Source of the DNA: Candidatus Thermosaccharophagus tengchongensis
GTDB taxonomy: Bacteria > Armatimonadota > Fervidibacteria > Fervidibacterales > Thermosaccharophagaceae
Strand: one strand, 5' to 3'
Assembly (NCBI GenBank): GCA_032161105.1
Contig: JAVHTD010000006.1
DNA: 64,000 bases
Position numbers and translations under genes: made by a program. A model generated the notes under the pieces. That model worked only from the letters and a program-made list of their open reading frames with translations. It did no database searches and was not told the origin of the DNA. Shown in pieces: positions 6,072-38,006 of the stretch. Positions within the stretch are counted from its first letter, which is position 1; each line of letters opens with the position of its first letter.

Positions 6072-6398
6072 TCGCTCCACCTCGCGTTTTTAAAACATCG
6101 GCTATCGCAGAGCATGCGAAGCTGAATCAGCTTGCATTGTCACATTGGCTTAACAGGCAACGGATGACCGCTCCCCATCGGTTCCATCAAAAAGAAGCAA
6201 CGGCTCAAGCTTCGCCTTGGAGCATCGTCATTCTTTAACCACTGTAGCGTGGATTGGTGTGATCGTAAATAGCTTGCGCTATCCCTGTGCGCTATTGTTT
6301 GAATTCGCGCGATGTGATTGCCACATATTTGACCTACGGCAGCTTCGCCATAATGCCGTTGTCGGTTCATACACCTGTGAGCTATGGGGGGATTAAAA

Positions 6399-10168: not shown

Positions 10169-10255
10169 CTCTCATGAGCTGTCACTGCCATTGCTGCATC
10201 CGTGCACAAGGAGGTTTCAGACAATACTGCCTCTGCATTTGCCGTGTTGCTCGCC

Positions 10256-11032: not shown

Positions 11033-11081
11033 GCCACACCATCCCTCAGCATGTCGGCTTACTTCAAGAGCCTTAACTCCC

Positions 11082-11747
11082 TCACTTCTTCATTGTCTTC
11101 TCCGGCGGCTTGCGCTCAATTTGCACATTGACCTCAGGTAAGAGCTGTTCATCTCCGGGCTCAAAGAGCAACTCGCCGCTCTCAAGGTTCATCGTTATCC
11201 TCCCGGCTTTTCCGAGAGCCTGCGACACCTCCGGCGATATACCGCTCACCTTTATCTGCGGTGAGCCCGTCATGATGAGCAGCGATTCCTTTGGGTCAAT
11301 CTGGAGACGCTTACATGAGCCAACCACATGCGCCTTTCGCTCACCCTCAACATCCATCCTCATGTCAAGTGAGACATTGCCCATAGCCTCAGCGCTAACG
11401 ACCGTCCCCAATACACCCTTGCCTTGAACGCCCTTTTGAATCAACCTCGCAATGACTGTGTCGCTCTGTATCCTGCCCTGCGACCATTCAATCACTGCAC
11501 CGCCATATGCTATAACCTCAATTGGCTCCTTGCGGAGCATGAGTTTGATTGATGAGCCGCGCTGCCCAATGCAGTAAACCTTCACAAACTCAAATTGCCC
11601 TCCAGAAACCTCCTGAAGCGCAAGCGCGCTTCCCATGATGCTCATATGCCATATGAATGCCGCGCACAAAAGGCACGCTCCAAGTGAGACGAAGGGCAAG
11701 CTGCGCACAAAAGCGCGCATTGACATCATCTCCCCCTGCCGACTCAA
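11082..11747 (-). CDS. Putative LptA/OstA-like periplasmic protein
   Basis: Signal/anchor segment, beta-rich sequence (AEAMGNV) and position between lptC-like and lptB. Exact start uncertain. Confidence 0.55.
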   Translation of the reverse strand: MSRQGEMMSMRAFVRSLPFVSLGACLLCAAFIWHMSIMGSALALQEVSGGQFEFVKVYCIGQRGSSIKLMLRKEPIEVIAYGGAVIEWSQGRIQSDTVIARLIQKGVQGKGVLGTVVSAEAMGNVSLDMRMDVEGERKAHVVGSCKRLQIDPKESLLIMTGSPQIKVSGISPEVSQALGKAGRITMNLESGELLFEPGDEQLLPEVNVQIERKPPEKTMKK

Positions 11748-12389
11748 TCAATACTTGAGCCACTTTGAAATCCTCAATTGGAGTGACGGTCTGCCCGATA
11801 GCTCAACTTCGCCAAGAACTGTGTCAGCGCGTGCAGAATCAGCGCTGCCAATGAGCATCCCGCCAAGCGCAAATGATACACCGCCAATGGCGAGCACTTC
11901 ACCATCGCTCCACCGCCAGCGCATCCTGCTTGATTTGAGAATGGCATTGTGCTTGTTTGACTTGAGCACCACGTCGCCAATGAACTCAAGCAGCTGCTTT
12001 TGCACACTTACGATGACGCTGCTCCCACTGAAGCTCGCCACAACTGCGCCTTCATCCATCACGCTGCAAACTGGCTTTCTGAGCTTTAGGACATTGCCGG
12101 AATACGAGAGCTCGTCAAAGCCAATTTCAAACTCCCTGCCGCTTGCCGCCTCCCTTCCGAGCAACTTTTCACCGCGAAGCTTCAGCCCGCCAACTTGCGC
12201 CATAAGCGCTTCCAAGCTGCTTCGCCTTGCAACATTGTGTTCGCTTTGAATGGCTGTCTCAACTTGCGCTCTCTCCTCCTGCTGCCACCAAAGCTTTGCA
12301 AGGAAGCCAACGGCTACGACCGATATGAGCAGCGCAAATCCGAAAAGCGATGCGAGCAGCCTCAAGATGCCCCTCACTGCATTATGCAC
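11748..12389 (-). CDS. Putative LptC-like protein
   Basis: N-terminal TM followed by a beta-jellyroll-like pattern (LEFIGDVVL...LKSSRMRWRW...GGVSF). Operon context. Confidence 0.55.
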   Translation of the reverse strand: MHNAVRGILRLLASLFGFALLISVVAVGFLAKLWWQQEERAQVETAIQSEHNVARRSSLEALMAQVGGLKLRGEKLLGREAASGREFEIGFDELSYSGNVLKLRKPVCSVMDEGAVVASFSGSSVIVSVQKQLLEFIGDVVLKSNKHNAILKSSRMRWRWSDGEVLAIGGVSFALGGMLIGSADSARADTVLGEVELSGRPSLQLRISKWLKY

Positions 12390-22249: not shown

Positions 22250-23023
22250 GTGATGAGCATGATCATTGACTTCCATTGCCATGTTGGCACGGGTGAGGAG
22301 TTGCAAGCGCCATGGACAACGAGGGCGAGCCTGGAATTATACCTTGAGCGTGCCGAGCATGCCGGGATTGACATGACAGTTGTGTTTGCCATAACGAGCG
22401 ATGACTATGAGCGTGCAAACGCTGAGGTGGCTGAGGTTGTGGCGAACCATCCGGGCAAGTTGATCGGGTTTGCAAGGGTGCACTCAAAAAGGGATGCAAG
22501 CAAGATTGAACGCATGCTCAGGCGCGCAGTTGAAGATTACGGTTTCAAGGGCATAAAGGTGCACGGCGCTGAAGCCATGCCAACAAGGGAGCTTTGCAGA
22601 GCTGCAGAGGATATGCACCTTCCAATACTTGTGGACTTGGTCGGGAGGATTGAGGTGCTGCCTTTGCTCGCAACCGAGTTCAAGGATGTCACATTTGTTG
22701 TGGCTCACTTGGGCAGCTTCTCTGATGATTGGCGCGTCATGCAGTTCATGCCGCACTTGCTCTCAACCTACCCCAACATTTACGCCGATACATCTGGGGT
22801 GCGCTTCTTTGACTACATTTGCGCGGCTGTGAAACAGGCTGGTCCAACAAAACTGCTGTTTGGCTCTGATGGTCCGCTGCTTCACCCGGGCGTTGAATTG
22901 CACAAGGTTAAGCTGCTGCATCTCCCGCCAGAGGATGAAGCGCTCATACTCGGTGGAAACGCCTATAGGCTGCTCTTTAAATCCAACAGCTCAAAAGGTG
23001 GTCATGGTGTGGCTGCGCCTTGA
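22250..23023 (+). CDS. Amidohydrolase_2 family metal-dependent hydrolase
   Basis: IIDFHCHVG, GFKGIKVH, VAHLG, NIYADTS and LLFGSDGP. Confidence 0.88.
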   Translation: MMSMIIDFHCHVGTGEELQAPWTTRASLELYLERAEHAGIDMTVVFAITSDDYERANAEVAEVVANHPGKLIGFARVHSKRDASKIERMLRRAVEDYGFKGIKVHGAEAMPTRELCRAAEDMHLPILVDLVGRIEVLPLLATEFKDVTFVVAHLGSFSDDWRVMQFMPHLLSTYPNIYADTSGVRFFDYICAAVKQAGPTKLLFGSDGPLLHPGVELHKVKLLHLPPEDEALILGGNAYRLLFKSNSSKGGHGVAAP

Positions 23024-25554
23024 GCAGCGCGTCTCTCCTGCCATTGCTTAATAGCATAGATGACGATGTTGATGTTAAAGCGGATGGCGAGCTCCTTAAC
23101 CTGCTGCGGTATCGGCGGGGCTATTTTGCCCGGATGATGATCGCAGATGACATCGCTATAGTCGTTGCGAGAGTAAATGACGGCATGTCTTCCATCCACT
23201 CGGAGCGCCAAAATCGGGTATGTCTCACCGAGGTCGCCCGGCGGGACAGCGCTTATCCTGTAAAAGGCATTGAAGATGGGGTGCGAGAGCGGCAGCTCCT
23301 CCCAATCGGACATGCGCTTATTAAATGTCTTGCACATCTCACGCATGAACGAAACATCAAACGGACCGTGTGAGTTGTCGCCAAAGATTGTCCCGCCAAG
23401 ACGCACATACTCACGCAGCACCTGTCTCTCCTCATCCGTGAGCTCAAAAGAATCCTCACCGTAGAAGAAAAGTATCGGCACATCCTTTACCGCTTCAAGC
23501 GTGAGAGCAACTTTGCGCTCACCCTCAGGCGTGCGAATCTTCGTGCGCCTGTTAAGTTCGCGGAGAACATTATGAACCCTGTTGATGTGCACATCCCAGT
23601 TGGATTTGTCCACAATGGCTATGACTGGATGGCGTGCAAACTCACCACTGATGTCGGTGAACAATCCGCCCTCGGTTGACTCCGGCACAGTCACAAACTT
23701 GACTGGACGACCGACATCCTCTCGCCTAACTGGTGCACCATATGTGCCGCCACCAGTTCCGGCAGCGCCAGCGCGAGCCGTTCCACCAACGGCGCCAGTA
23801 ATACCCGGGCGTTCACCAACACCACCCGTTGAAGTCCCACCACTCGGGCGCACCAAGACGCCGCTTGGCGACTCCCCACGCGGCGGTTCTCCAAGACCGC
23901 TACCGGTGCCAGATTTGACACCCTTTCGGTAACCCGATACATCCCCACCAAAGCCAATAGCCGGTGCCCCGGGACGAGCTTTCATTCCGCCGCCACCACC
24001 GCGCCCAACTGAACCAGCACCACCACCGCCAGCAATTGGACCAGCACCAGACACATAACCGGTTCCACTGCCATACCCGCCTCCGGATGTGCCCGCACCT
24101 GAACCAACACCACCGCCTGGAGATGGCGACCCTACAACTTGTGGTGCACCAATCCCTTCGCCACCCACACCTGTGCCAGCACCGCGCTGCGGTGAACGCG
24201 GCAAGCCAAACGCACCAATGCCAGCACCAGCACCGGTGCCAATACCGGCACCCTCGCCTATGGCTGCACCTCCACCTCCAATGCCACCGAAGCCACCAAC
24301 TGTAGGTTTGCCACGCCCGTGCAACAACTCGCCAAAATCCGCCACCTTGCCGGGACGCAGCTTATCGCCACCCCTGCCACCAACGCCTTCGCCTACACCG
24401 GAAATTTCATCCGTTGGACGAAGTGCACCCCTGAGCAAATCAAGGAATGCACTTCCGATGCGCCCGCCACCCTCTTTTGCAGTTCCGGCTCCGTATGCCT
24501 CAGGACGCGGCTGTGACAAACCTATGCCGCTCTCTTTCGGTCTGCCAATCAACACCCCCTGAGGACCGTGAGCGCCAGAACCACCGCCAACATCAAGCTG
24601 ACCGACTTGACTCGCTCCACCTTTGCCCGGTGGAAGGACTCCGATAGCTATCGGCGCCTGCATTGGCTGTGGCATCCCTTTCGTCATTGCGCCACGCCTT
24701 CCTGATGGAGCTTCTGGCAAGCGCGTCACTTCGTCCTCTTGTGGCGCCGGCGATGCAACTCCCGGACGCCTCTCAACACCAACCCCGGCAACATTTGGGA
24801 GCACTATCGGGGATGAAACTGTTGCCTCGCTTGGCGCATGCCTTTTCGTCAAGGAGCGCGCCACCTCAATAACCTGTGATGTCGTCCTCTCCGAGGAAGG
24901 CAATTCAGCCTGTGAGGGTATAACCTCTCGGCGCATCGTCTCCTCTCTCTGCCCAAATGTTGGCAAAAGCTTAGCCGTTGAGATTTCACGCTGCCCATGT
25001 GAAACCTTCATTTCCGGCGGCTCAATAACCTGTGTTGGCTGCTTTGCAAGCTCAACGCTCGGCTGCTCATATAGCCTCTGCTCAGCAGTTGGGCGAACTG
25101 CCACCCGTTGCGGTTCATGACTGACTTCTCCCTTCTCGGGAGCACTTACCCTCCTCACAATCTCATGTGCGACGGATGGTTGGCGCATAGGCATGCGTTG
25201 AACTTTTACCTCTTCCATGCGGCGCTCAACATGCCGACGGGAGTGCACAACTCGCTTTGCAGCAACCTGCGGGATGGGCGTGGTCCTTTGAGGGCTTTGA
25301 GCGAGAACTCTTTGTGGCTTAACTGGCTCAGCTTTCGGCGTCACTGGCTCGGTTTCAACCCGCTCAATCTCAACTCGTATCACCTGCTCACGGCTAACAA
25401 ATCGCTTTGCGGGAATGTTAATTGCTCCGAGCGGCAGAAGAAGGATGTGAACAACGAGTGACATCACAAAGCACTTCAAAAGGCGCGCATCGGCTTGCCG
25501 CACAAGTGCAGTGCGGTATCTCGCCAACCCATTTGCGAATCTCAAGGTCTCCAT
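23002..25554 (-). CDS. TonB/TolA-like membrane-anchored protein with long Pro- then Gly-rich linker and C-terminal DUF4159 domain
   Basis: TM FVMSLVVHILLL carries the SxxxH motif, followed by roughly 600 aa of low-complexity linker. C-terminal PILFFYG...EERQVLREYVRLGGTIFGD...SFMREM...LPLSHPIF...DGRHAVIYSRND...NIVIYA matches the DUF4159 pattern. Confidence 0.75.
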   Translation of the reverse strand: METLRFANGLARYRTALVRQADARLLKCFVMSLVVHILLLPLGAINIPAKRFVSREQVIRVEIERVETEPVTPKAEPVKPQRVLAQSPQRTTPIPQVAAKRVVHSRRHVERRMEEVKVQRMPMRQPSVAHEIVRRVSAPEKGEVSHEPQRVAVRPTAEQRLYEQPSVELAKQPTQVIEPPEMKVSHGQREISTAKLLPTFGQREETMRREVIPSQAELPSSERTTSQVIEVARSLTKRHAPSEATVSSPIVLPNVAGVGVERRPGVASPAPQEDEVTRLPEAPSGRRGAMTKGMPQPMQAPIAIGVLPPGKGGASQVGQLDVGGGSGAHGPQGVLIGRPKESGIGLSQPRPEAYGAGTAKEGGGRIGSAFLDLLRGALRPTDEISGVGEGVGGRGGDKLRPGKVADFGELLHGRGKPTVGGFGGIGGGGAAIGEGAGIGTGAGAGIGAFGLPRSPQRGAGTGVGGEGIGAPQVVGSPSPGGGVGSGAGTSGGGYGSGTGYVSGAGPIAGGGGAGSVGRGGGGGMKARPGAPAIGFGGDVSGYRKGVKSGTGSGLGEPPRGESPSGVLVRPSGGTSTGGVGERPGITGAVGGTARAGAAGTGGGTYGAPVRREDVGRPVKFVTVPESTEGGLFTDISGEFARHPVIAIVDKSNWDVHINRVHNVLRELNRRTKIRTPEGERKVALTLEAVKDVPILFFYGEDSFELTDEERQVLREYVRLGGTIFGDNSHGPFDVSFMREMCKTFNKRMSDWEELPLSHPIFNAFYRISAVPPGDLGETYPILALRVDGRHAVIYSRNDYSDVICDHHPGKIAPPIPQQVKELAIRFNINIVIYAIKQWQERRAAQGAATP

Positions 25555-25683
25555 CGGTTCATCACCGCGCTTCAAGGGCGCTCAACGCATAAGAGGCATC
25601 CACAAAAGTGAAGGTTGCAACTGCGCCTCCGGCGCTAACTTTGATGAGTAACTTCAAGGCGAGCGCCCAACACATGCAACCCA

Positions 25684-26115
25684 TCATTGAACCTTCTCCC
25701 AGCGATCCCACTCAATCTTTGGCACCGGCTCGGCTGCCAATGCTGCAGCCCTTGCCCCAACGCGCTTGACGGCGTCCATCACGGCGACGGCAACCCAGTA
25801 TGGTATCTCAGCATCACCGCGTATCACGACTTCCTTCGTTCCCACTTCCTGAATGCGCTTGCGCAATGCAAGTTCAAGCTGCGATGGCGAGACACGCACA
25901 TCATCAACCAAGATTTGCCTGTCCGCAGTTATGCGTATGGTTATCTCGTGCTGCCTTATCGGTTGCGGTGACATAGCCCCGGGCAGCTTCAACTTCAATC
26001 CGGTGTCACGAGAGAAAGTGGTTGTGAGCAGGAAGAAGATGATGAGCAGGAAAGCTATGTCCGCCATCGTCACCATCGGTATGGTCGGGACAAGCCTCCT
26101 ATTACTGCGCTGCAT
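25684..26115 (-). CDS. exbD: Biopolymer transport protein ExbD/TolR
   Basis: IPMVTMADIAFLLIIFFLLTT (conserved Asp) and VVIRGDAEIPY...VMDAVK. Confidence 0.9.
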   Translation of the reverse strand: MQRSNRRLVPTIPMVTMADIAFLLIIFFLLTTTFSRDTGLKLKLPGAMSPQPIRQHEITIRITADRQILVDDVRVSPSQLELALRKRIQEVGTKEVVIRGDAEIPYWVAVAVMDAVKRVGARAAALAAEPVPKIEWDRWEKVQ

Positions 26116-26749
26116 GTCCGCCACCTGCCTCAACTGCCGCCACTTGCTCGCGGTGCTCAATTAGCTCCCTCGCAGCTGCTTCCATCTCCATCACAAATGC
26201 ATCCGACCTGCTGATGAAGTAGTTGTATGCGATGTTCGCCGGTATGGCTATGACAAGACCTGTGACAGTCGTTATGAGCGCCTCTGCGACACCGGCTGCA
26301 AACTTCGTCGGGTCACCGAGCCCGTAGACGGTCACTTCAAGGAAGGCTTTGTATAGCCCAGAGACAGTCCCGAGGAAGCCAAGCAGCGGAGCTATAGTCG
26401 CAATTGTTGAAAGCCATACAAGATGCCTCTCAACGAATGACTGCATTGATGCGATCGCAAACGACACAGCGCTTTGCACATCTTCAGCGTTGGATTGCCA
26501 CTTGCGCAACCCGGCGGATAGAACAGCGCCAACGGTGCTCACGGTCGTTTCACAGCACCTCAATGCATCATTTATGGCGCCGCGCTTCAGCGCCTCTGCA
26601 ACCTCACGCATGACGATCTTGTTGTTTCGTGAAATCACATGGTATGTCCAGAGGCGCTCAAAAAAGAGCGCGACCATAACAATTGAGCAAAATATAAGCA
26701 CGATCTCAAACGGTCCGCCACGCAGTATGAATTCAAGCACCCCTCCCAT
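26102..26749 (-). CDS. exbB: MotA/TolQ/ExbB proton channel family protein
   Basis: LSTIATIAPLLGFLGTVSG and AGVAEALITTVTGLVIAIPA...YNYF. Confidence 0.92.
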   Translation of the reverse strand: MGGVLEFILRGGPFEIVLIFCSIVMVALFFERLWTYHVISRNNKIVMREVAEALKRGAINDALRCCETTVSTVGAVLSAGLRKWQSNAEDVQSAVSFAIASMQSFVERHLVWLSTIATIAPLLGFLGTVSGLYKAFLEVTVYGLGDPTKFAAGVAEALITTVTGLVIAIPANIAYNYFISRSDAFVMEMEAAARELIEHREQVAAVEAGGGHAAQ

Positions 26750-26785
26750 TTCGCTTCACCCCCATTGGGCTTACAACTGCGACTG

Positions 26786-29500
26786 CTATAACTTGCCCAT
26801 CGCTTTCAATCTCTCCCTCGCCCTCTCAGCCCACTTCGTTTGCGAATACTTTTCAAGCACCACTCTGTATGCCTTTTCAGCGCGCTCACCCTCGCCAAGA
26901 CGCTCATAACAAAGCCCAGCATAGAATTGAGAGGCACTCGCCCACTCGTGGACATCCTCGTATAGCAATGCCACGCGCAAGAACTCACGCAACGCCTCCT
27001 TCACATCGCCCTTCAACAGGAGGCATTCGCCCACCCTAAATTGCGCCTCAACTGCTAACTCGCCACCATCTCCTGCTGCAACCGCTTTGTAAAGCTCAAT
27101 GGCTGCATCAAATTGCTTACGGTTTTGCTTCGCCCATGCAAGCTCAAACTGCGCCCTTATGGTGAGCTCGTCCTTCGGGTAGCTGTTTATGAACTGCTGC
27201 AACACAGCTTCTGCATCGGCGAACTTCTCAAGCTCGTTCAGACACTTGCCCCTGTATAGCTGAGCATGCTTTGCGAGCGGCGAATTCGGATGCTCCTTAA
27301 TCAGGCGCTCAAAGGTCACCAAAGCCTGAGCATATCTATGCCCATTAAACTGCAGGTAGCCGAGTTGAAGCAATGCATCTGGCTTAATCTCCTCGGGGAG
27401 CCGCTTGCTCAACGCCCCCTCAAACGCATTCATGGCATCAGAATCGCGCTTCAATATGAGCAAAGTCCACCCAAGCCTGTAGAGGGCTTTCCCGCAGAGC
27501 TCCTCATCCTTTCCGGATGAGAGCTTAACCGAGCGTTCGTAATGCGTGAGCGCCTCCTCAAACCGCTTTTGCATGAACAGGAGCTCGCCGATGATGAAAT
27601 GCCCTTCTGGGACATATTGGCTCTGTCCATATTCGTTCACCAAGTGTTCAAATGCTTTGAGCGCATCCTCATGCCTCCCAGCATCTATGTAAGTCCAACC
27701 GAGTTGATACAGCGCCTTGTCACACAACTCCGACTTGGGATGTTCTTTTAGCAGGCGCCAAAAGGCTTTGGCAGCCTCGTCAAAGCGTTTCAACTCATAC
27801 AGGCAAAGCCCATCCCTGTAAAGTGCCGTTGCCAACTTAGCCTCATCCTTTGAGCCCGAATTGATGAATGCGGCAAACTCATCGTGTGCCTCATTGAAGC
27901 GCTTGAGCATCCATAGCGAGTTGGCGCGCCAGTAGTGAGCCTCAGACACAAGCTTGTCATTTGGAAAGCGCTTGATGAGTTCGCCATATGTGCTTGCAGC
28001 ATCCTCATATCGCTCACGGACAAAATGCACAGCGCCGAGCGCAAATAGCGTTGCGGGCATAACAGCAGTCTGCGGGAAACGGGCGAGGATGAACTTGTAG
28101 ACCCTCTCGGCTGCGTCGTATTGCTTCTTCTCATATGCAGCCTTGCCGCTATCAAGCAACGCCAAAGCAATATCTTCAGCTGCCTCATTCGGCAAATCCA
28201 GTTCGCCGACTATTTGCTGAATGCTTTCAAACTCGCCGAGACGAATTAGCCCCAAAATGAGCGATGTCATTGCGCTGCGTATGCGCTCATCCTTCGCAGC
28301 CCACCCCTTTAGCTCCTTCAACTCGTTCACCGCCACACCGATGTTGCCCCTCTTTAGGGAGCACTCAGCCAACATCACCTTCACGAGGGCTGCTTCCCTG
28401 CCATCCTTCGCATGTTCAAGCGCTGCCTCAAGCGACTTTGCAGCCTCATCGTATCGTTCCATCGCCATGTATGCCTCTCCGAGTGCGATGTATGCTCTGG
28501 CAACATACGGTGATTTGGGCATCGTTCTGATGAGCAAGAGGAATTGCGTCGCTGCAGCCTGTGGTTGCTTCATCCGAAGGAGACATTGCCCACTCCAGTA
28601 GATTGCATGGTCTGCGAATGGGTGCGCTCTATCTTCAGCCACCTTTCTGTATATCTCCAACGCTTGCTCGTATCGCTTCATGTTGAAATGGCAATCGGCT
28701 TCACGAACGATTGCCTCCATTGCCGCTTGCGTCTTCGGATAGCGCTCTGCCACTTCGCCAAACAGCTTTGCCGCCTCCTCATAGCGACCTTGCTCAAACT
28801 CCACCCACGCAAGACCAAGCAATGCATCGGCGACCTCGTTGCTTTTCGGATAGCGTTTGATGACCCTCTCATAAGCCGCACGAGCCTCATCGTATCGTTT
28901 CAAATCAAACAGGCATTCACCAATCAACCACTGACATTGCGGCGCAACATCGCTCTCCGGGAACTCAGCTATGCAGCGCTCAAAATATTTCAAAGCCTCC
29001 TCGTGCCTCTTCAAATCGCGCGCAATCAAACCGAGTGAATAGAGCGCATAAGGAGCTTCCGCACTCTTGGGGAATTTGCGCAGCACGAGCTCATACCACT
29101 TGATGGCTTCCTCGTAAAGCTGCATTTGATAGTGAGCTTCGGCGGTCCAATATGTTGCCCTCGCTTCAATTTCTGTTTTCCCCCTTAAACCGGCTTCAAC
29201 TGCAGCCCTCTCAAAAGCCCTCGCAGCCTGCTCATAGCGCTTCAACCTGAAGTTGCAATCGCCGAGGACGAACAGCGCTTCCGGAATGCGTTCGTCCTTT
29301 GAATGCTGCTTTGTGAACCTCTCAAGCTCATCAGCGGCAAGCGCAAATTCCTCCTTCTGATAAAGCCGCATTGCAAATGCAAAGTCCTCATCAGCAGTTC
29401 CGGCTGACGCATAGGACGCGCAAAATGGGAGTGTGCAAATCAAGCATATGCCGGTTTTGATTAGCGTGAGCAATATAGCGCGCTGTAAACTGCACAGCAT
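26786..29500 (-). CDS. Exported long tetratricopeptide-repeat protein (CpoB/YbgF-like repeats)
   Basis: Signal peptide and AAGGAGG SD. Many TPRs with recurring (F/Y/H)P-x-S-x-x-A-x-x-A-L-Y motifs. Confidence 0.88.
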   Translation of the reverse strand: MLCSLQRAILLTLIKTGICLICTLPFCASYASAGTADEDFAFAMRLYQKEEFALAADELERFTKQHSKDERIPEALFVLGDCNFRLKRYEQAARAFERAAVEAGLRGKTEIEARATYWTAEAHYQMQLYEEAIKWYELVLRKFPKSAEAPYALYSLGLIARDLKRHEEALKYFERCIAEFPESDVAPQCQWLIGECLFDLKRYDEARAAYERVIKRYPKSNEVADALLGLAWVEFEQGRYEEAAKLFGEVAERYPKTQAAMEAIVREADCHFNMKRYEQALEIYRKVAEDRAHPFADHAIYWSGQCLLRMKQPQAAATQFLLLIRTMPKSPYVARAYIALGEAYMAMERYDEAAKSLEAALEHAKDGREAALVKVMLAECSLKRGNIGVAVNELKELKGWAAKDERIRSAMTSLILGLIRLGEFESIQQIVGELDLPNEAAEDIALALLDSGKAAYEKKQYDAAERVYKFILARFPQTAVMPATLFALGAVHFVRERYEDAASTYGELIKRFPNDKLVSEAHYWRANSLWMLKRFNEAHDEFAAFINSGSKDEAKLATALYRDGLCLYELKRFDEAAKAFWRLLKEHPKSELCDKALYQLGWTYIDAGRHEDALKAFEHLVNEYGQSQYVPEGHFIIGELLFMQKRFEEALTHYERSVKLSSGKDEELCGKALYRLGWTLLILKRDSDAMNAFEGALSKRLPEEIKPDALLQLGYLQFNGHRYAQALVTFERLIKEHPNSPLAKHAQLYRGKCLNELEKFADAEAVLQQFINSYPKDELTIRAQFELAWAKQNRKQFDAAIELYKAVAAGDGGELAVEAQFRVGECLLLKGDVKEALREFLRVALLYEDVHEWASASQFYAGLCYERLGEGERAEKAYRVVLEKYSQTKWAERARERLKAMGKL

Positions 29501-29596
29501 TTTGCATGCCTCCTTTGACCGTTTGTGAGTCGCCAACCAAATTGTGATGATTGCCACAATGACACAGTTGCATTAGCACTGACCAAACGAACACAG

Positions 29597-31030
29597 CTAT
29601 TGCCCCTCACGCGCATCCGAAACCCTTCCCGAAAGCCTTATGACCAACGGCTCCTGCTTGCCCTTCACAAATCCCATCGTCCGACACACCTCACCAGCAA
29701 ATGCCCAGTCAGCTCTTGAAAAGCCATGTCCAACCCAAGGACGATATGCATGCAGCGCGTATATTCCGGGCACAGAGCCATCCACTCTAAAGACTCCGTG
29801 TTCATCGGTTGAGCACGGCGATGTGCGCGAATCCTGCACCCAAACCATCGCATCGGGGACGACATTACCGCGCTCATCAACAACTGCGCCCTCATGCGAC
29901 ATGCGCTGCATATACGGCTCCGACGGTATCACGGGAAAGATGTTGAACCTGCTCCCATTACCCCTGAACAGGTTTTCATCGGTTATATCTGGAGAGCTTA
30001 TGCCCCACCAAATTCGGCGCGCAATTACCTCATGACCGCCAACTGAATCGCTTATGAGCACCCGTGATATCACCCTGTTGCAATCGCCGCGAGTGTTTAT
30101 CCGCACAACATTCTCACTCGCCTTTGCCCTCCCGAGGATGTGTATGGCGCCCCAACCATGCTCCTCGCCCATGTCGGTTATACTCACATCCTCAATCATG
30201 ATGTTCGGGAAGATGCCGTCATCATTCGGCAACGCTGCAAATGTGCCGCACTTGCTGATGAGGCAGCAGAAGAGATTGAATGACCTCCCAATTGATGAGA
30301 GGGCAAAGCGCTTGAAGTTGCGTATGGTGCAATGCTCAAGAAACGCCTCACCACCCACAGCATCCATATCACCATCCTCAATCAGGCAATACCTTGCAAC
30401 TGCATCCTCTCCGAGCATCAACGCGCCGTTGCCACACCTTCGCATTCGCGAGTATTCAATTGCGCCAGCACGGAGTGTCACTGCAAACTTGAGCGCACCG
30501 CTGAATCCCACATCCTCAAACCAACAATAACCCACATAAGTTGGCGCCTCAGAGCTTAACGGGCTTTGAAGGTGCTTAAACACGCAATGCTTGAAGCAAG
30601 TTCCTTTGGTGCCCTTCTCATCAGACGGGTTCGCCGATTTGGCAACGGTTATCCCGATGACGAGACCTTTGCGCCATTGCTCCTCGTTGCCACCTTTAAA
30701 CAAAATTGGTTTTGTTGGGCTGCCTATGGCACGCAGTTCGCCAAAGACGGATATACATGCTGGCGACTTGATGCTGCCAAAAAACTCAACGACGACTCCC
30801 GGCTCTATGGTCACACTTACACCTTTAGGTATGCGCAGCTCGCCATCAATGCGCACAGGGCTATCCTGTTGGCGCCAAACTTCGCTGCGCTGTAAAGCCC
30901 CCGAGCGAACTGTCGCGCAGATACAGATGCTGCGCGAGAATGCTAAAAGCAACACAAGTTGCATCGCAAGCGACACCGTGCGCATCCGACAGAAACACCT
31001 CGCCACATGCATGGTGATCTGGCAGCTCAT
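29597..31030 (-). CDS. Exported beta-helix-like protein with C-terminal carboxypeptidase-regulatory-like domain
   Basis: Signal-like N-terminus, W...SPVRIDGELRIPKGVSVTIEPGVVV...GELRAIGSPTKPILF, and C-terminal GAVVDERGNVVPDA...TDEHGVFRVDG..PGIY. Confidence 0.6.
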   Translation of the reverse strand: MSCQITMHVARCFCRMRTVSLAMQLVLLLAFSRSICICATVRSGALQRSEVWRQQDSPVRIDGELRIPKGVSVTIEPGVVVEFFGSIKSPACISVFGELRAIGSPTKPILFKGGNEEQWRKGLVIGITVAKSANPSDEKGTKGTCFKHCVFKHLQSPLSSEAPTYVGYCWFEDVGFSGALKFAVTLRAGAIEYSRMRRCGNGALMLGEDAVARYCLIEDGDMDAVGGEAFLEHCTIRNFKRFALSSIGRSFNLFCCLISKCGTFAALPNDDGIFPNIMIEDVSITDMGEEHGWGAIHILGRAKASENVVRINTRGDCNRVISRVLISDSVGGHEVIARRIWWGISSPDITDENLFRGNGSRFNIFPVIPSEPYMQRMSHEGAVVDERGNVVPDAMVWVQDSRTSPCSTDEHGVFRVDGSVPGIYALHAYRPWVGHGFSRADWAFAGEVCRTMGFVKGKQEPLVIRLSGRVSDAREGQ

Positions 31031-31154
31031 TTAACTTGAAAAGCAACTTGCATTGAGGTTGCCAAGGCAAACTCTGCGTGTGCGGCGCACCAATTTGATG
31101 GCGCTGATGTCCGCGTGGTTGCCAATGCGAAGGCATCGGCGACCATGCTCACAG

Positions 31155-32132
31155 TTAAGTGCCGCAGGCGCACAGAATCGGACGGACCTCGCGGTGTCGC
31201 CGCATGTCCCTTTGGCATGCTGAAAAGATTGACTTGATGACTTTGTCAGACCACTCCTCTGGCATGGGCAGCGAGAGCGCAAATGCAGCTGTTGGAGCTA
31301 CATTGCAGATTGATATGGCTTCCCTCAATTCACCGCGCCGCTTCACAGCGCCGCCGGCGAAAATTAGTGGTATGAGTAAATCCCTTTCGTCATTCCCAAA
31401 GTGCGCTCTATTATGCCCACCGTGATCGGCTGTGATGACGAGCAATGTCCCCTCCCAGATGGCGCATTCCTTCAGCACCCTTACAATTGATCCGATGTGA
31501 CTGTCACACTTTGCCACCTTGCTGAGTTGCGCCTTACTCCCCCAACCATGCTCATGCCCTGCTAAATCCACATCCGGAAAGTGGATGAAAAGCACTTGCG
31601 GCTTCATCCGCATGATGCAATCTAACGCTGCATTCAAAACCTTTGATGCATTCGCCCTCTTGATCTCCGGAGCATAGTCAACCCACTTCGGGTTGGCGAG
31701 GTGAAACAGCTTCTTCTTGCCCACAACCATAGCGGTGGTCATGCCCCTTGCCTTGGCGAGGGCGAATAAAGTCTTGCGCTGCACATAGCCCCTCTCCGGG
31801 ATGTAGGAATCAAAGTCAAAGCCGTGAACGGATGGTGGCACAGCGGTGAAAAGGGAGACATGCGCTGGCAATGTTGAAGGTGGCTTTACCGTCCTTGCGA
31901 TAAGTGTATAACACCCATCGCTCATCAGCTGACGGATATTTGGTGCGTCAGCCAACTTCAGCACCCACGATGCAAGTCCGTCAACGGTGATTATGAGCGC
32001 ACGCTCTGCCAATGGCTCGCTTGCGCCTGCCGAACGCTCACATGAATAAGCCAGCCACAACGCTGAGACAAACAGAAGGATGAGCAATTCAAGTGCACCC
32101 TTTATTCGCCTTCCCATCATCTCATCCCTCAC
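31155..32132 (-). CDS. Alkaline phosphatase superfamily protein (nucleotide pyrophosphatase/phosphodiesterase type)
   Basis: IITVDGL, PSTLPAHVSLFT (Thr nucleophile), DLAGHEHG and ITADHGG. Signal peptide. Confidence 0.85.
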   Translation of the reverse strand: MRDEMMGRRIKGALELLILLFVSALWLAYSCERSAGASEPLAERALIITVDGLASWVLKLADAPNIRQLMSDGCYTLIARTVKPPSTLPAHVSLFTAVPPSVHGFDFDSYIPERGYVQRKTLFALAKARGMTTAMVVGKKKLFHLANPKWVDYAPEIKRANASKVLNAALDCIMRMKPQVLFIHFPDVDLAGHEHGWGSKAQLSKVAKCDSHIGSIVRVLKECAIWEGTLLVITADHGGHNRAHFGNDERDLLIPLIFAGGAVKRRGELREAISICNVAPTAAFALSLPMPEEWSDKVIKSIFSACQRDMRRHREVRPILCACGT

Positions 32133-33277
32133 ATCTGTGCCTTTCCGAGTCGCACCGTGAACTTCATCCTCTGACCACCACGCACGACTTCAATTGTGGC
32201 ATCGGAGTATGGCTCGGCAATCCAAACTTCCCTGAGCAAGCTTATGCCCGAATGTATTGGCTTACCATTGAAGCGTGTGATCACATCGCCAGCTTGCAAA
32301 CCAGCATTTGCAGCCGGGCTATTCTCATGAACGCGCAATATCAAAGCGCCTTCCATCGGCTTTATCCCGTAGCGAGTCACCCTTTGGTTGCTGGCATCCT
32401 CAACAATGACGCCAAGATAAGCATGTTCAACGACGCCGCCCTTCATTAACCTGCCAAGTAACGCCTTAACCGTGTTTATCGGTATGGCAAACCCGATGCC
32501 TATTCCGACCCTCTCGCCCGACGGATTGTAGATGAATGTATTGACGCCGATCACTTCGCCGTTCAAGTTGAGCAACGGTCCACCGCTGTTGCCCGGGTTT
32601 ATGAGGGCGCTCGTCTGCAGGTATGAGTGGACACTCCTTCTTCCCTCAACGGATTCAAATTCCCTCTCCTTTGCGTTTATGAACCCGATGGTCACAGTCT
32701 GCCCGAGCCCAAACGGATTCCCAATGGCTATAGCCCAATCACCAACTTCAACCTTGTCGGAGTCGCCAAGCTTTAGCGTCGGCAGCGGCTTCTGCGCATC
32801 CACCTTTATGACTGCCAAGTCAAACCATGGGTCAATGCCAACAACCTTGGCTGTAAACTCGCTCTTATCGTGCAGCTCAACGCGAATCCTCCTTGCACCC
32901 TCAATCACATGCGAGTTTGTGAGTATGTAACCGTCGCTCCGAATGATGAAACCAGAGCCGATGCCCTCAGAGCGCGGCAACGGCTCACCAAAGAACTCGT
33001 GCAGCAGCTGTTCAAATGGGTCAGCAACTATCCTCACCGTTCGTATGTGCACGACGGCAGGCTCGGCTTCCCTTGCAATCCTCGCAAATGCCTTTTGCCA
33101 GTCCGACTGAACTGCCCTTGATTGCCCACCTGACGGCGCCTCACCGGATGTCGCAATGTGAGTTGAAGCGCTTGTCCGCTCGCCTGAGCTGTTCCACTCG
33201 CCAACCCTGTATCCGAAAGCGAAACCGAGCAGCAATGGGATGAGCATGCCTATCAATGCCTTGCATGCCATCCGCAT
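32129..33277 (-). CDS. htrA: HtrA/DegP family serine protease with one PDZ domain
   Basis: GSGFII...TNSHVI, DLAVIKV, AIGNPFGL, INPGNSGGPL and a C-terminal PDZ domain. Confidence 0.92.
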   Translation of the reverse strand: MRMACKALIGMLIPLLLGFAFGYRVGEWNSSGERTSASTHIATSGEAPSGGQSRAVQSDWQKAFARIAREAEPAVVHIRTVRIVADPFEQLLHEFFGEPLPRSEGIGSGFIIRSDGYILTNSHVIEGARRIRVELHDKSEFTAKVVGIDPWFDLAVIKVDAQKPLPTLKLGDSDKVEVGDWAIAIGNPFGLGQTVTIGFINAKEREFESVEGRRSVHSYLQTSALINPGNSGGPLLNLNGEVIGVNTFIYNPSGERVGIGIGFAIPINTVKALLGRLMKGGVVEHAYLGVIVEDASNQRVTRYGIKPMEGALILRVHENSPAANAGLQAGDVITRFNGKPIHSGISLLREVWIAEPYSDATIEVVRGGQRMKFTVRLGKAQM

Positions 33278-33346
33278 TTCACCGTCACCCCCTGTCAAAT
33301 CCGAGGGCGGTTTGATGTGGCGAACGAGCATTGGCTTTGTGCATTC

Positions 33347-36300
33347 TCATTTCACTTTGACTTGTAGGACGAGAGGCTTTGCTCCGTGCTCCTCAAACCA
33401 AATCTTGCCCGCTCGCACCATGTCCAACTTGAGATTGTAAGCACCACCCTTCTTTGGGGCTTTCAGAGAGGCATCAAGTTCCACAGTTTCATCCATCTGT
33501 ATGTCCTTCGGCAGGTTGGAAACGATGCCGGATTCAACTACCACCCCTTTCTCATCAATCCAGCGGCATCCGAGTTGAACGATGTCATCACCGGTCGCAT
33601 TCCATGTTAAAGCGCCCCTATTCCTTAAGCGCAATTTGACTTTGTAAGTTTGACCCGCAATCAACTCCACAGGTATGTCGTGCGATATGACCTCGTAGTC
33701 GTGCTCGGCTATGACCCTAACAAGCACATTGAGCGATGGTGAACCACGCTCACTGAACCAACCTACACCCTCCATGTGCAAGTCCCAGCGCAGCGTGAAT
33801 AAGCCGACACGCTTTGGAGAGCGCACCCTCGCCTTAACTGCCACGCTCTCGTTAAACCCCACATCCCTTGGGAGCGGTGTCCTGAGCTGGACGATGTCTT
33901 TGATCTCGTTTCCGCTCTCATCCAGCCACTGATAGCTGAGCATAATGGGATGCTCACCAGCAGCCATCCAAGTCATCGTCCCACGATTTGCCAGCGTCAT
34001 CTCAACTTCATACTCATGTCCGACAACCATTACGGTGGGATGTTTGACCGGATGGAATTCAGCAACGCATGTTGAGCGCTGAACCGTCACTTCAACCTTG
34101 AGCGCTGCAGAGCCCATCCGTGAAAACGGCAAATTGCCGGCACGAAGCAAATCCCAATGCAAGGTGTAGTCGCCGCTTGCTGATGGAGCTTGCACCCTTG
34201 CTTCAACTTCAACCACCTCTCCGGGCATGACATCATACGGCATCGGCGTCTCTATCGTGGGCATAGCGAATTCCTTCCCATCGGGGGCAACCCATCGGTA
34301 TATCACTCGGACGCTTCTGAGCCCCTTGCTCTCCCATGTCAAAGCACCGATGTTCTTCAGGCGCAGGTTGACGAGGTAGATTTGACCGGGATACATTGCC
34401 TTCGGGGTGTTGTGCCACAAGTATGCGACTGCATATGGCATTTTGACGCTGACCGGATGCACTTCAAAATTGCTCCCCAGTTCCGACAGCCAAGATTGCT
34501 TTCCACCGCGCTCCTGCAGCGCTAAGTCCCAAAGCAGGCTGTATTCACCGGGAACTGATGGTGAGCGTATCCTCACACTCACTTCAACCGTCTCGCCCGG
34601 TTTGACGCCTTCATCCAACGGTGTCAGGATCGGCTGCTCATCAAGCTTTGCACCATGTTGATCAAGCCAGTGATAACCAACCAACACCTTGGCTGGTGCG
34701 TCTTTCGCATTCCACGGCATCGCACCGATATTGCGCAACCTCAACCTCACGGTGTAAATCTGGCTTGGAGCCATCTCCCTCGGGGCATTGTGCCAAATGA
34801 CCTGCGCCGCATAGCGCCTCACAACCCTCACAGGTATGCTCAGCGTCTCGCAACCTTCCTCCGAGAACCAAATTGCACCGCCGTAGCATAAGTCCCACTC
34901 AAGCGTGTAACTCCCGGGATTGTCAGGCGCAATAACCCTCGCCGTCAATTCCACTTCCTCCGATTCGTTGACATCTTTTGGGAGGCTGAATTTCTCGCCG
35001 CGCATCACGATGGCTCCGCTTTCATCCTTCCAACGATACGATAAAGTCACCGCATACCTTCCGGCGGCAAGCCATGTTAACTTGCCCGTGTTGCGCAACT
35101 TAATCACAACCTGAACAGCATCCGATGAGAGCATCTCCTCTGGGATGGTGTGCTCAACATATGAGACGCCATAAATCCTCTCAGCAATCACCGTCACACT
35201 GTCCTCGCTCAAATCACCCTCTTCGTCATAGGCGCGAAGGCGCAATGTGAGCACGCCGCTTAGCTGGCTTACATCCCAAGTTGCTATCACCTCATCCTCA
35301 ACCTGCCTTATCCCATCACGCAGCTCAATCACCGCCCATGAAGTTGGCACAGCACCGCGACCATACTCAAGCGTCAAGTGCTTTAGTTCACCATATGGGA
35401 CTTTGACTGTTGCCCTGATTGGCACAGTCCCTTCAACCCTTGCTCCCTGCTTTGGGTGTGTTATCTGCACATGCGGCAATTGCCTCTCAAGCTCCAAAAC
35501 GAATATCTCCCTGTTGCCGTCAACCACCGCATCGTATGCAATCATGTTGCCCGTCGGTGACCAGCTCGGTGAGGATGGGTTTTCTCCGGGTGCTTCAACC
35601 TTCTTAAGCGAGCTGCCGTCAGCGCTGATTATGACAACTTCGCAGCGACCATCAATTCGCCTCACCGCACAAATCCATTTTCCATCCGGCGACCACGATG
35701 GCGAATATCCCCCCGGCAAAATCAACCTCTCAGTGCGCTCAATCAAATTCATCACATAAAGACCGCTCTTACCATCTCCCTTAGCCACAAAAGCCAATTG
35801 CTTTCCATCCGGTGACCATGCAGGCTCCCAAGCGCCCTGACGCAATTTCCTCGGCTTGCCAGTGCCATCCAAATCAACCAACCAAATTGAATCAACTCCA
35901 TCCCTATCGGAAACGAAGGCAACACACTTCCCGTCGGGAGATATGGCTGGCATCCAGTCAATTCCAGGTGAGTCAGTTATCTGGCGCAGCTTGCCCGTTG
36001 AGAGTTCAAGCAACCAAACATCAATATTGCCGGAGCGGTTGCTCACAAACGCCAGCAAGTCGGCATGGCGCGCTAACGATGGGCTGCTTGCAAATTCACC
36101 CTCGGACTCGGACCTCACGAGTTTCTGGATGCTGCCTGTGAGCGTATCAAGCACCCATATTTCGTTTGCTCCGTCCCTTCCCGAAACGAATGCGAGCCTT
36201 TTGCCATCACCAAACCATGACGGCTGAGCTTCAACCGCCGGTGAACTCGCCACACGCTTTGCCGAACGAACCCTTATGGCAGCCTCGCATGCGGTGTAAG

Positions 36301-36370
36301 CGACGAACACTGTGATGGCAAATAAAGCCACCACAACATTTGAGAGCCTCATCAACAAGTTCACCCCCAC
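33347..36370 (-). CDS. Exported TolB-like PD40 beta-propeller protein with an Ig domain and five tandem NBR1-type Ig repeats
   Basis: Signal peptide and P-x-WSPDGK-x-(L/I)AF PD40 repeats. Five ~120-aa repeats of L-x-N-x-G-x-x-x-W...Y-x-W...P-x-x-x-G-x-Y-x-L-x-WDL...WF. Confidence 0.8.
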   Translation of the reverse strand: MGVNLLMRLSNVVVALFAITVFVAYTACEAAIRVRSAKRVASSPAVEAQPSWFGDGKRLAFVSGRDGANEIWVLDTLTGSIQKLVRSESEGEFASSPSLARHADLLAFVSNRSGNIDVWLLELSTGKLRQITDSPGIDWMPAISPDGKCVAFVSDRDGVDSIWLVDLDGTGKPRKLRQGAWEPAWSPDGKQLAFVAKGDGKSGLYVMNLIERTERLILPGGYSPSWSPDGKWICAVRRIDGRCEVVIISADGSSLKKVEAPGENPSSPSWSPTGNMIAYDAVVDGNREIFVLELERQLPHVQITHPKQGARVEGTVPIRATVKVPYGELKHLTLEYGRGAVPTSWAVIELRDGIRQVEDEVIATWDVSQLSGVLTLRLRAYDEEGDLSEDSVTVIAERIYGVSYVEHTIPEEMLSSDAVQVVIKLRNTGKLTWLAAGRYAVTLSYRWKDESGAIVMRGEKFSLPKDVNESEEVELTARVIAPDNPGSYTLEWDLCYGGAIWFSEEGCETLSIPVRVVRRYAAQVIWHNAPREMAPSQIYTVRLRLRNIGAMPWNAKDAPAKVLVGYHWLDQHGAKLDEQPILTPLDEGVKPGETVEVSVRIRSPSVPGEYSLLWDLALQERGGKQSWLSELGSNFEVHPVSVKMPYAVAYLWHNTPKAMYPGQIYLVNLRLKNIGALTWESKGLRSVRVIYRWVAPDGKEFAMPTIETPMPYDVMPGEVVEVEARVQAPSASGDYTLHWDLLRAGNLPFSRMGSAALKVEVTVQRSTCVAEFHPVKHPTVMVVGHEYEVEMTLANRGTMTWMAAGEHPIMLSYQWLDESGNEIKDIVQLRTPLPRDVGFNESVAVKARVRSPKRVGLFTLRWDLHMEGVGWFSERGSPSLNVLVRVIAEHDYEVISHDIPVELIAGQTYKVKLRLRNRGALTWNATGDDIVQLGCRWIDEKGVVVESGIVSNLPKDIQMDETVELDASLKAPKKGGAYNLKLDMVRAGKIWFEEHGAKPLVLQVKVK

Positions 36371-36421: not shown

Positions 36422-37192
36422 TTACCGAGATGGCTTAACAGCCCTGCATATGAGCGATATGCCGAATGGAAGTTCAATGTGCTTTATCAACCGTGCTTCA
36501 AGCCCGAGCATGCCAATCAAGAGCTCGTTCAAAAGCCTCGGAAGCCTTATGAACGCAGTGTGCTTGCGAGCGCCAATTTGGGCAATCAACTGCAGCTTGC
36601 GAAACAAAAACACAAATGGCAACAACGGACATATGGCGAAGGATAACTTTTCAATCTCAAACCCGACGGCAACCAGCTTTCGCTCAATCTCAGCTCTGGC
36701 ATATCGCCTGAAATGCCTGAGTGCTATGTCATGCCCGCTCCAAAGCCATTTGAAAGCTGGCACAGTGAGCACCAATACTCCGCCCCCGATTAGGACACGC
36801 CAGAACTCCCTCAGGGCATTAACATCGTCCTCAATATGCTCAAGCACATCAAGTGCCGCTACAAGCTTAGCTGCGCAATCGCGCAACGGCAACCTCAGCG
36901 CATCAGCACATACAAGCAAACCGTTCCAGTGCTCCCTGCACAGGGAGAGAGCAAACTGTGAAATGTCCATCCCAACACATGTGCCGTAGGATGAGAGCAA
37001 TTCCAAGTTTCCACCCGTGCCACAGCCGACATCAACCACCAACCTCTCATCGGCTTTAGAGATGGCAGCAGCATCAAGCAATGCCGCAACAATTCTGCGC
37101 CGCCCGATAAACCACCAGTATGAGCGCTCAAGTTCAAACTGCTCAATGTATTGCTGCTCCTCCAGCTTACTTTCCCCCTTCACCATCGGCAA
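36422..37192 (-). CDS. Class I SAM-dependent methyltransferase
   Basis: YWWFIGRR, VVDVGCGTG, LDVLEHI, LTVPA..WLWSGHD and HFRRY. Confidence 0.88.
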   Translation of the reverse strand: MPMVKGESKLEEQQYIEQFELERSYWWFIGRRRIVAALLDAAAISKADERLVVDVGCGTGGNLELLSSYGTCVGMDISQFALSLCREHWNGLLVCADALRLPLRDCAAKLVAALDVLEHIEDDVNALREFWRVLIGGGVLVLTVPAFKWLWSGHDIALRHFRRYARAEIERKLVAVGFEIEKLSFAICPLLPFVFLFRKLQLIAQIGARKHTAFIRLPRLLNELLIGMLGLEARLIKHIELPFGISLICRAVKPSR

Positions 37193-37343
37193 TCAGCAAC
37201 ATGAGCGTCAAACCACATGTAAGCTAACGCCAATGGCGAATTGATTTCACTTGCATCAGCATGTTTACATCCGCTTGATGGAATGAAGCTCAAATTCGCG
37301 ATGCAGTGAATCACAGCAGTGGTTGATGGAGTGCTGTGACAGG

Positions 37344-38006
37344 TCAAGAACGCCCCTCTGCAACCCCTTCGCTGCCAAATCGCATGATGAACTTGAGCAC
37401 ATGGCTCAACCTGAAGCGCCTTTGATTGCCCGAAGTCCTGTAGTGCTCAAGTAAGCCAGAGTTTGTGTATCTTCGTATGGTTGTCTCACAGACATCAAGC
37501 AGCAACGCCACATCCCTGATTGACATGTCTGGGTCAAGCAACTTGCTCAAGAGCTTCCATCTCGGGCTCTCGTCAGCGCGCCTGTTTATTTCCGTTTGCA
37601 GGCGAGCCACCTGAATCAGTATTTGCTTGAGCAACTCATCAAGCCTATTGTGGCTTCTCGGGTTCTTGATTCCAACCCAAAATGAACGCCCTTGAGCAAC
37701 ACGCGATGATGCGTGAGTGGCAGCCTCAACCGGTTTATTTGTTTCAACCGGCTGCTGTGCTTGGCGCACTTGTTGAGGCTGTGGCAAATGAGTCCGATGC
37801 ACCGTCGGCAGCGCATGCTGCCTCGCCATGCCCCTCCATGGCGGTCTTGGGTGGAGTGTTGATTGAGGTGGGGCATGATGCTCAGCAGGTTGACCCCCCT
37901 CGGTTCTCTTAGCAGCTTCACCGCGAGCAGCTTTCTCCTGTTCCTCCAAGTAGCGCATCCATTCCCTAAGTGACATGCCCTTTCGCTGTTCACTCACAGC
38001 CCTCAC
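37344..38006 (-). CDS. Excisionase/BldC-like (MerR-type) helix-turn-helix protein with long N-terminal extension
   Basis: C-terminal MSIRDVALLLDVCETTIRRYTNSGLLEHYRTSGNQRRFRLSHV. Confidence 0.75.
   Translation of the reverse strand: MRAVSEQRKGMSLREWMRYLEEQEKAARGEAAKRTEGGQPAEHHAPPQSTLHPRPPWRGMARQHALPTVHRTHLPQPQQVRQAQQPVETNKPVEAATHASSRVAQGRSFWVGIKNPRSHNRLDELLKQILIQVARLQTEINRRADESPRWKLLSKLLDPDMSIRDVALLLDVCETTIRRYTNSGLLEHYRTSGNQRRFRLSHVLKFIMRFGSEGVAEGRS

Follow-up and report, generated by a model that had tools for sequence, protein, structure and literature searches.

Motors of the Ton and Tol type have few known outputs, and a cluster of eight genes in Candidatus Thermosaccharophagus tengchongensis (Armatimonadota; GenBank assembly GCA_032161105.1, contig JAVHTD010000006.1) raises the question of what such a motor drives when its usual partners are missing. 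The cluster occupies positions 23002 to 36370 on the minus strand of the 64,000-nucleotide stretch that we analyzed (the window) and includes ExbB and ExbD subunits, a giant tetratricopeptide repeat (TPR) protein, and a TonB- or TolA-like transducer arm ending in a DUF4159 domain. Only one such motor is encoded in the genome, and receptor plug, Pal, and TonB_C are all without a match; the job of the motor here is therefore not a textbook one. An initial annotation of this DNA had read all eight genes as a single, lineage-specific, and undescribed kind of envelope machine. We find instead that four of the genes recur together in other families, and that this core is a DUF4159-headed variant of a class of force transducers with vWA heads that was described in 2025 (Williams-Jones, PMC12204202). 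Other genomes and families are cited below by our own handles (G276, f24, and the like).

The ExbB/TolQ-type subunit (26102–26749, minus strand, as for all eight genes) has three transmembrane (TM) helices, and the ExbD/TolR-type subunit (25684–26160) carries a TM aspartate, Asp34. Both matched their Pfam families above cut-off (PF01618, MotA_ExbB, and PF02472, ExbD) and are the sole MotA/ExbB and ExbD matches in the genome; the equivalog tolQ and tolR models scored below cut-off. Alignment indicated that ExbB retains S22, T128, T161, and P170, which match by motif residues S34, T148, T181, and P190 of Escherichia coli ExbB (PMC12215075), and that D34 is the equivalent of the essential TM Asp of ExbD. 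The transducer arm (23002–25575; 857 aa) has one TM helix at residues 36–54, carrying S39-x3-H43. It is followed at about residues 65–71 by a motor-box-like strand, I-R-V-E-I-E (I66–E71), whose sequence pattern fits the first six hydrophobic/hydrophilic positions of the D-box as presented in PMC10907165. The linker of about 575 residues is, by composition, Pro/Glu-rich from 60 to 330 and then 35% Gly from 330 to 630, and the Pfam DUF4159 match spans residues 657–841. Motifs, Pfam, and fold thus bear out the initial description of an ExbBD-type motor with an SxxxH arm that ends in DUF4159 and not in TonB_C. The fourth protein, an exported TPR solenoid (26786–29557), has about 23 YbgF/BamD-like repeats with a period of 37 residues; its 923 aa agree with the roughly 900 first estimated. 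In the comparison with YbgF/CpoB, TIGR02795 scored above cut-off by way of 10 summed repeats and NF008068 below it; the TPR profile matched only generic TPR structures.

The SxxxH helix is conserved, as the initial annotation had expected. Using the head domain alone as the search query, we assembled 156 proteins, left out 32 that were short or fragmentary, and found a hydrophobic SxxxH in 33 of the 36 long proteins with a Met start and one DUF4159 beginning at residue 300 or later, compared with 0/88 tandem-DUF4159 controls; the 36 include six genus-level near copies and about five alignment seeds. Two of the three exceptions have T in place of S. When organism names were looked up for ten DUF4159 protein clusters, only Armatimonadota appeared, in two clusters. 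Exported tandem-DUF4159 proteins (about 500 and 700–800 aa) lacking SxxxH form a large class, with an example in G086.

An AlphaFold2 model of the head (about residues 630–850), built from nine sequences, had a pLDDT of 82.8. Its best structural match was the DUF4159 structure 4i66 (Hoch_4089; Z 21.9, root-mean-square deviation 2.8, 191 aligned residues; sequence E 2.7e-14), followed by MetA, a ThuA-like protein, and glutaminases or glutamine amidotransferases (GATases) at Z 9–10; structure comparison showed the fold to be common to GH42 domains as well. PMC4702930 places DUF4159 (PF13709) in the same clan as ThuA and GATaseI_like. In the model, the head has a class-I GATase-like fold without the catalytic Cys: no alignment column contained Cys in at least 30% of 32 heads, and glutaminase chemistry is therefore unlikely. 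Position 733 is invariantly acidic (D/E) in the 32 heads, and the positions after it vary; the nucleophile-elbow position is assigned by motif. The modeled head likely binds rather than catalyzes, and a ligand or an ion could be held at D/E733. A second DUF4159 protein in the genome stands alone and follows DUF4175. Elsewhere the domain is fused to VIT-vWA (G132) or encoded within a BatA-vWA cluster (G028). Baseplate-J and tail genes directly precede a DUF4159 gene in G144, and a locus in G120 is similar in layout.

To what extent do these four genes travel together? Across 301 genomes of the phylum, the head profile matched at 1e-10 in 73 and better than 1e-50 in 18. The strong arm genes outside the genus number 16 in 14 genomes, four of them ending at a contig edge, and 9 of the 12 with upstream DNA directly follow exbB-exbD. 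The complete order TPR-exbB-exbD-arm was observed in seven genomes of four other families (G276, G114, G138, and G236 of f24; G225 of f33; G079 of f31; G226 of f43), although two of the seven giant TPRs are cut by contig ends. Hence the core is not lineage-specific, contrary to the first proposal. Because the order recurs across families, the four-gene core is the unit, and we are reasonably confident that the machine is made of four genes, not eight. The TPR-exbB-exbD set also precedes SxxxH arms with other heads, vWA in G028 and PA14 in G026, and the arrangement in G107 (f18) is TPR-TPR-exbB-exbD-exbD-DUF4159 with an AxxxH helix in the arm. Arms of 1095–1188 aa with SxxxN and not SxxxH stand behind exbB-exbD in G034 and G026; the one in G034 ends in a weak TonB_C match and adjoins a TonB-dependent receptor.

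The closest relatives tell a different story. ExbD and the TPR protein were each matched in 4/4 genomes of the genus (counting that of the window) and in 0/20 of the sister family, which argues that the function of the core is dispensable. The ExbB-family match examined in the sister family is flagellar MotA. Family matches across the order gave ExbBD but no flagellar stator in the genus, MotA (15/18 with a family match) but no ExbD in sister genus g2, and neither in 2 genomes of genus g3. We infer that family f2 (20 genomes of the same order) includes Fervidibacter, whose species Fervidibacter sacchari, a cultured member of the order, is described in PMC11535203 as a diderm with a periplasm of 55 nm.

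The host itself is a diderm, since its genome (97.4% complete) encodes BamA, TamB, OmpH, an SLH-collagen-barrel protein, and LptF/G twice. Within this genome there was no match to OmpA/Pal (PF00691), TonB_C (PF03544), TolB_N (PF04052), or the TonB-dependent plug domain, which indicates that the system is neither Tol-Pal nor Ton. No TonB-dependent barrel scored above cut-off; one match fell below it (E 5.8e-4), to an 855-aa gene behind lptF/G that also has a weak LptD match (E 2.6e-4). The reported absence of a Pal/OmpA protein and of a TonB-dependent receptor therefore extends to the whole genome. The genome likewise gave no match to the MotB plug, and PorV was unmatched in 5/5 genomes. A 311-aa outer-membrane barrel candidate without a Pfam match (G000:C8:16292-17227, minus strand) occurs in 3/3 genus and 0/10 sister genomes and may be a target of the motor; it gave weak matches only, in 4/15 arm-bearing genomes outside the genus. 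A TraF_2 barrel on C41 was rejected as a partner, being present in 10/10 sister genomes and 1/3 genus genomes. Elsewhere in the window, LptF/G and an ABC ATPase (9038–12389) lie downstream of GT2 and epimerase genes and are preceded by two family-less open reading frames (ORFs) that by position are likely LptA/LptC.

A scan of the genome for SxxxH (8/2231 ORFs) revealed a second, orphan arm (G000:C10:29860-31281, minus strand; 473 aa) with the SxxxH helix, strand, Gly/Pro linker, and a separate head. This head had no Pfam or NCBIfam match, and ESM Atlas returned only unnamed matches below 0.9. The second arm keeps SxxxH in 4/4 genus genomes; its head alone is found in 1/20 sister genomes, and other families have it in exported proteins of 320–490 aa. 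As the genome has only one motor, the second arm likely shares ExbBD with the DUF4159 arm. SxxxH ORFs on C4 and C9 were rejected as arms because they encode polytopic membrane proteins, and four more were set aside by position, proline content, or family matches without a full reading.

Upstream of the core lie four further genes: a right-handed beta-helix protein with a CarboxypepD_reg-like domain (29597–31030; 477 aa, exported, genus only); a phosphodiesterase of the alkaline phosphatase superfamily (AlkP; 31155–32132; AlkP/Phosphodiest match) with intact metal motifs; an HtrA/DegS-type protease (32129–33331) with a TM segment, trypsin domain, one PDZ domain, and intact TNSHV/DLA/GNSGG motifs; and a PD40 beta-propeller with five NBR1-type Ig repeats (33347–36370; 1007 aa; PD40 and N_BRCA1_IG by Pfam). 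All families proposed at the outset for the cluster were matched (PD40, trypsin and PDZ, Phosphodiest, TPR, MotA_ExbB, ExbD, and DUF4159), and the five Ig repeats were confirmed as five NxGxxxW motifs. For the beta-helix gene, Pfam gave only CarboxypepD_reg below cut-off, and the reading as a beta-helix held up in ESM Atlas, where the two best matches (0.95) are right-handed beta-helix clusters. The ORFs are co-oriented and mostly closely spaced as described, with gaps from the PD40-Ig gene to the arm of 15, −4, 124, 39, 36, −59, and 108 nucleotides (longest ORF starts), and an N-terminal hydrophobic segment is present in 8/8 proteins by Kyte-Doolittle analysis alone, in line with the predicted signal peptides and anchors; none of the five exported proteins checked has a lipobox. 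The same order of eight genes in 3/3 other genomes of the genus (63–89% identity) argues that the layout is not due to chance. Two further genes at 36422–38006, one for a class-I methyltransferase and lying 51 nucleotides upstream of the PD40-Ig gene, the other for a BldC/excisionase-like helix-turn-helix protein, are co-oriented and conserved in the genus; the operon may begin there. Promoter and terminator scans of the locus were at chance (7 versus 10.2 and 17 versus 16.4, respectively). One RNA run contributed 73 reads on the locus (28 at ≥99% identity) and two runs none, and a fourth gave two short foreign contigs; a pile of reads at about 26,050 derives from other organisms, and first-mate directions mostly agree with the gene strands, at a coverage too sparse to bear on co-transcription. 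Two more window genes were noted, an ORF of 1321 aa (60006–63971) with no Pfam or NCBIfam match and an MtrA-family domain (tetrahydromethanopterin methyltransferase subunit A; 5364–6080; E 2.5e-39) in this bacterial host.

Outside the genus these neighbors part from the core. In other families, the seven full core loci (upstream flanks of 0–12 kb) gave no match to profiles of HtrA, AlkP, the orthologous beta-helix, or NBR1-Ig, although a different, GH141-like beta-helix gene lies directly upstream of the core TPR in G236. Relatives of the 477-aa beta-helix protein amount to 7 matches, all close (54–99% identity), and HtrA has two paralogues on contig C1. AlkP is present in 19/20 sister-family genomes, where ExbD has no match; in the 4/4 loci checked there, HtrA is unlinked and AlkP has none of the other cluster genes beside it. 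Full-length orthologues of the PD40-Ig5 protein occur outside the genus in five genomes (G226, G181, G062, G050, and G037), four of which have no arm match, and in 0/10 genomes of f24. No exbBD was found within the 14–20 kb examined around them; four of the five sit among ABC-2/Wzx exporters, nucleotide-sugar enzymes, and GT2 and PMT-type glycosyltransferases, and the remaining one lies behind an epimerase. PD40 proteins with five NBR1-Ig repeats thus appear as a small family of their own, mostly in surface-polysaccharide or glycosyltransferase loci. The propeller does not stand as a TolB analogue either, for TolB_N is missing and TIGR02800 scored 245.9 against a cut-off of 343.15. Conservation of the neighborhood, then, holds for TPR-exbB-exbD-arm in other families and fails for the four upstream genes, which stay together only in the genus. 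HtrA, AlkP, and the beta-helix protein are likely genus-level operon neighbors and not required parts, and the same is probably true of the PD40-Ig protein.

How might the core work? Going by Ton and Tol structures, ExbB and ExbD would form a 5:2 inner-membrane motor, the Ser-x3-His helix of the arm would dock on TM1 of ExbB, and ExbD would capture the motor-box strand. By this analogy, the arm is very probably energized by the window ExbBD as TonB and TolA are by their motors. The long linker may span a wide periplasm. Among the weakest steps, the DUF4159 head might grip the giant TPR protein, or a client held on it, and the pull might release or remodel exported proteins or glycoconjugates. 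We see an even chance that TPR-ExbB-ExbD-arm is such a proton-driven force transducer of exported envelope components, accessory and dispensable, with no role in outer-membrane tethering or receptor-based uptake. On this chassis, vWA, PA14, DUF4159, and the head of the second arm look interchangeable. A broader reading, which we hold only tentatively and as rather unlikely, would make ExbBD an all-purpose engine of the periplasm to which different heads can be fitted; a single motor would drive both arms, and the TPR-DUF4159/vWA unit would use proton power to remodel exported proteins or glycoconjugates by pulling on them. If true, the unit would be the equivalent, in the envelope, of the MoxR-vWA systems that are the other setting of DUF4159, and Ton/Tol motors would gain a third output, one for which no receptor and no Pal is required.

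Several observations count against the force-transducer reading. Its remodeling job has head swapping and co-occurrence with vWA as its sole basis, and searches for barrels and plugs in the genome found no outer-membrane target for the motor. The window arm lacks the distal L and second S of the SHLS motif, positions that PMC12215075 describes as less conserved in Ton. In the same source, S34 and W38 of E. coli ExbB contact S16 and H20 of TonB, and the position of Trp38, the partner of His20, is Val in the window protein; however, it is V, L, or I in all 20 Armatimonadota ExbBs aligned, two of them paired with canonical TonB_C proteins, so the replacement is a trait of the phylum and neither supports nor excludes docking. 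Core-associated ExbBs form no single supported clade in a weakly resolved tree. Two f3 loci (G024 and G039) have exbB-exbD-arm without the TPR gene and with S41 PDZ proteases ahead of exbB, and three arms of G032 are not behind exbB-exbD, one of them standing directly behind a TPR gene, while TPR-exbB-exbD-exbD lies elsewhere in that genome. Lastly, PD40 genes adjoin the core in 8 of the 10 further loci examined (convergent in all six f24 loci covered, co-oriented in G225, and as PA14-PD40 in G107), and a propeller may on this account be a fifth part. In a PD40 tree, four f24 proteins and that of G225 form one clade (100/99) with the window propeller outside it. A propeller may therefore belong to the machine loosely, as a fifth component that another lineage provides in this locus.

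Other explanations were weighed against this transducer. Ton-like import, in which the motor would power the entry of oligosaccharides or other nutrients by way of an outer-membrane transporter that current models miss, with the TPR protein as adaptor, seems unlikely to us. It would suit a lineage reported as saccharolytic (PMC11535203), the sugar-binding PA14 head in G026, the GH2 gene beside the PA14-PD40 gene of G107, the GH141-like beta-helix gene of G236, the fold shared with GH42 and ThuA-like domains, and the genus-wide 311-aa barrel candidate. However, carbohydrate genes are common throughout these genomes, and the sister family is equally saccharolytic without an ExbD match. The missing plug and TonB_C also speak against import, as do the LptD-like character of the lone sub-cutoff barrel match and the patchy, weak matches of the 311-aa candidate. 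The view that the eight products belong to, or act for, a single envelope quality-control complex driven by the proton motive force and working with HtrA and the phosphodiesterase draws on the fixed order and short gaps in 4/4 genus genomes, on the joint lack of full-length PD40-Ig, beta-helix, TPR, and ExbD matches in the sister family, on the S41 PDZ proteases of the two f3 loci, and on the PD40 genes that flank many cores. We consider it distinctly unlikely given the distributions above, with the upstream families missing from the seven full core loci, AlkP kept where ExbD is not, and PD40-Ig5 away from motors.

A Tol-Pal analogue, in which the SLH-domain porin or another anchor in place of Pal would serve to tether or invaginate the outer membrane of dividing cells, has in its favor that the host, a diderm with BamA, TamB, Lpt genes, and an SLH-collagen-barrel protein, has no other ExbBD-type motor, together with the YbgF/CpoB-like repeats and the propeller neighbors. 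PMC12204202 reports Tol-Pal only in Gracilicutes. Also against it, the system was not found in the 20 sister-family genomes searched, and a strong arm match occurs in only 18/301 genomes of the phylum; matches to OmpA in the four other core genomes inspected proved to be MotB, and with Pal, TolB_N, and the TolA/TonB C-terminal domains unmatched in the genome itself we judge this reading very improbable. The myxobacterial Agl-Glt gliding machine combines a TolQR-like motor, the TonB-like GltG, and a TPR partner. A surface motility or adhesion motor resembling it was suggested by the split between a genus with ExbBD and no flagellar MotA/MotB match and a sister genus with MotA and no ExbD match, and gliding has been raised for the vWA class in PMC12204202. 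Because MotB was found in 4/4 other core-bearing genomes tested, that idea is weakened, and we regard it as a far-fetched one.

We found no literature on DUF4159-headed arms; searches for DUF4159/PF13709 returned only the 2016 Pfam paper, and subscription papers or the supplements of PMC12204202 may list such loci. The locus gives DUF4159 a mechanistic setting, with the motor-free sister family as a natural contrast, and coupling of arm and motor is testable in E. coli chimeras. Compared with Ton, the core shares the motor residues, S/H helix, motor-box pattern, and Pro-rich spacer but has a giant TPR partner, in a genome without TonB_C, plug, or a TonB-dependent barrel over cut-off. With Tol-Pal it has in common that one cluster holds a motor, an arm, a PD40 propeller, and YbgF-like TPR repeats; it differs in having no Pal, TolB_N, or TolA C-terminal domain, in the 923-aa length of its TPR protein, in the glycan loci that house orthologues of its propeller, and in going unmatched in the sister family. 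The head agrees in sequence and fold with usual DUF4159 proteins (PF13709, 4i66), which are normally stand-alone or tandem, whereas here the domain heads a membrane-anchored arm. It has the fold of class I GATases but no conserved nucleophile Cys. The closest counterpart is the vWA class, which PMC12204202 describes as TM(SHLS)-motor box-linker-vWA proteins of unknown function whose genes come after a TPR gene, tolQ, and a pair of tolR genes; the kind of machine was, in this sense, already described. In both, TPR, tolQ-like, and tolR-like genes come before a gene whose product has a TM helix (Ser/His), motor box, linker, and globular head unrelated to the TonB or TolA C-terminal domain. They differ in the head (class-I GATase-like DUF4159 here, vWA there), the linker (about 575 aa compared with about 100), and the number of ExbD subunits (one here and a heterologous pair there, with two also in G107 and G032). 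Armatimonadota are absent from the list given for the class in PMC12204202, and its main text contains neither "DUF" nor "amidotransferase"; with the present locus, the 2025 class gains a second head fold and takes in a diderm phylum of the Terrabacteria.

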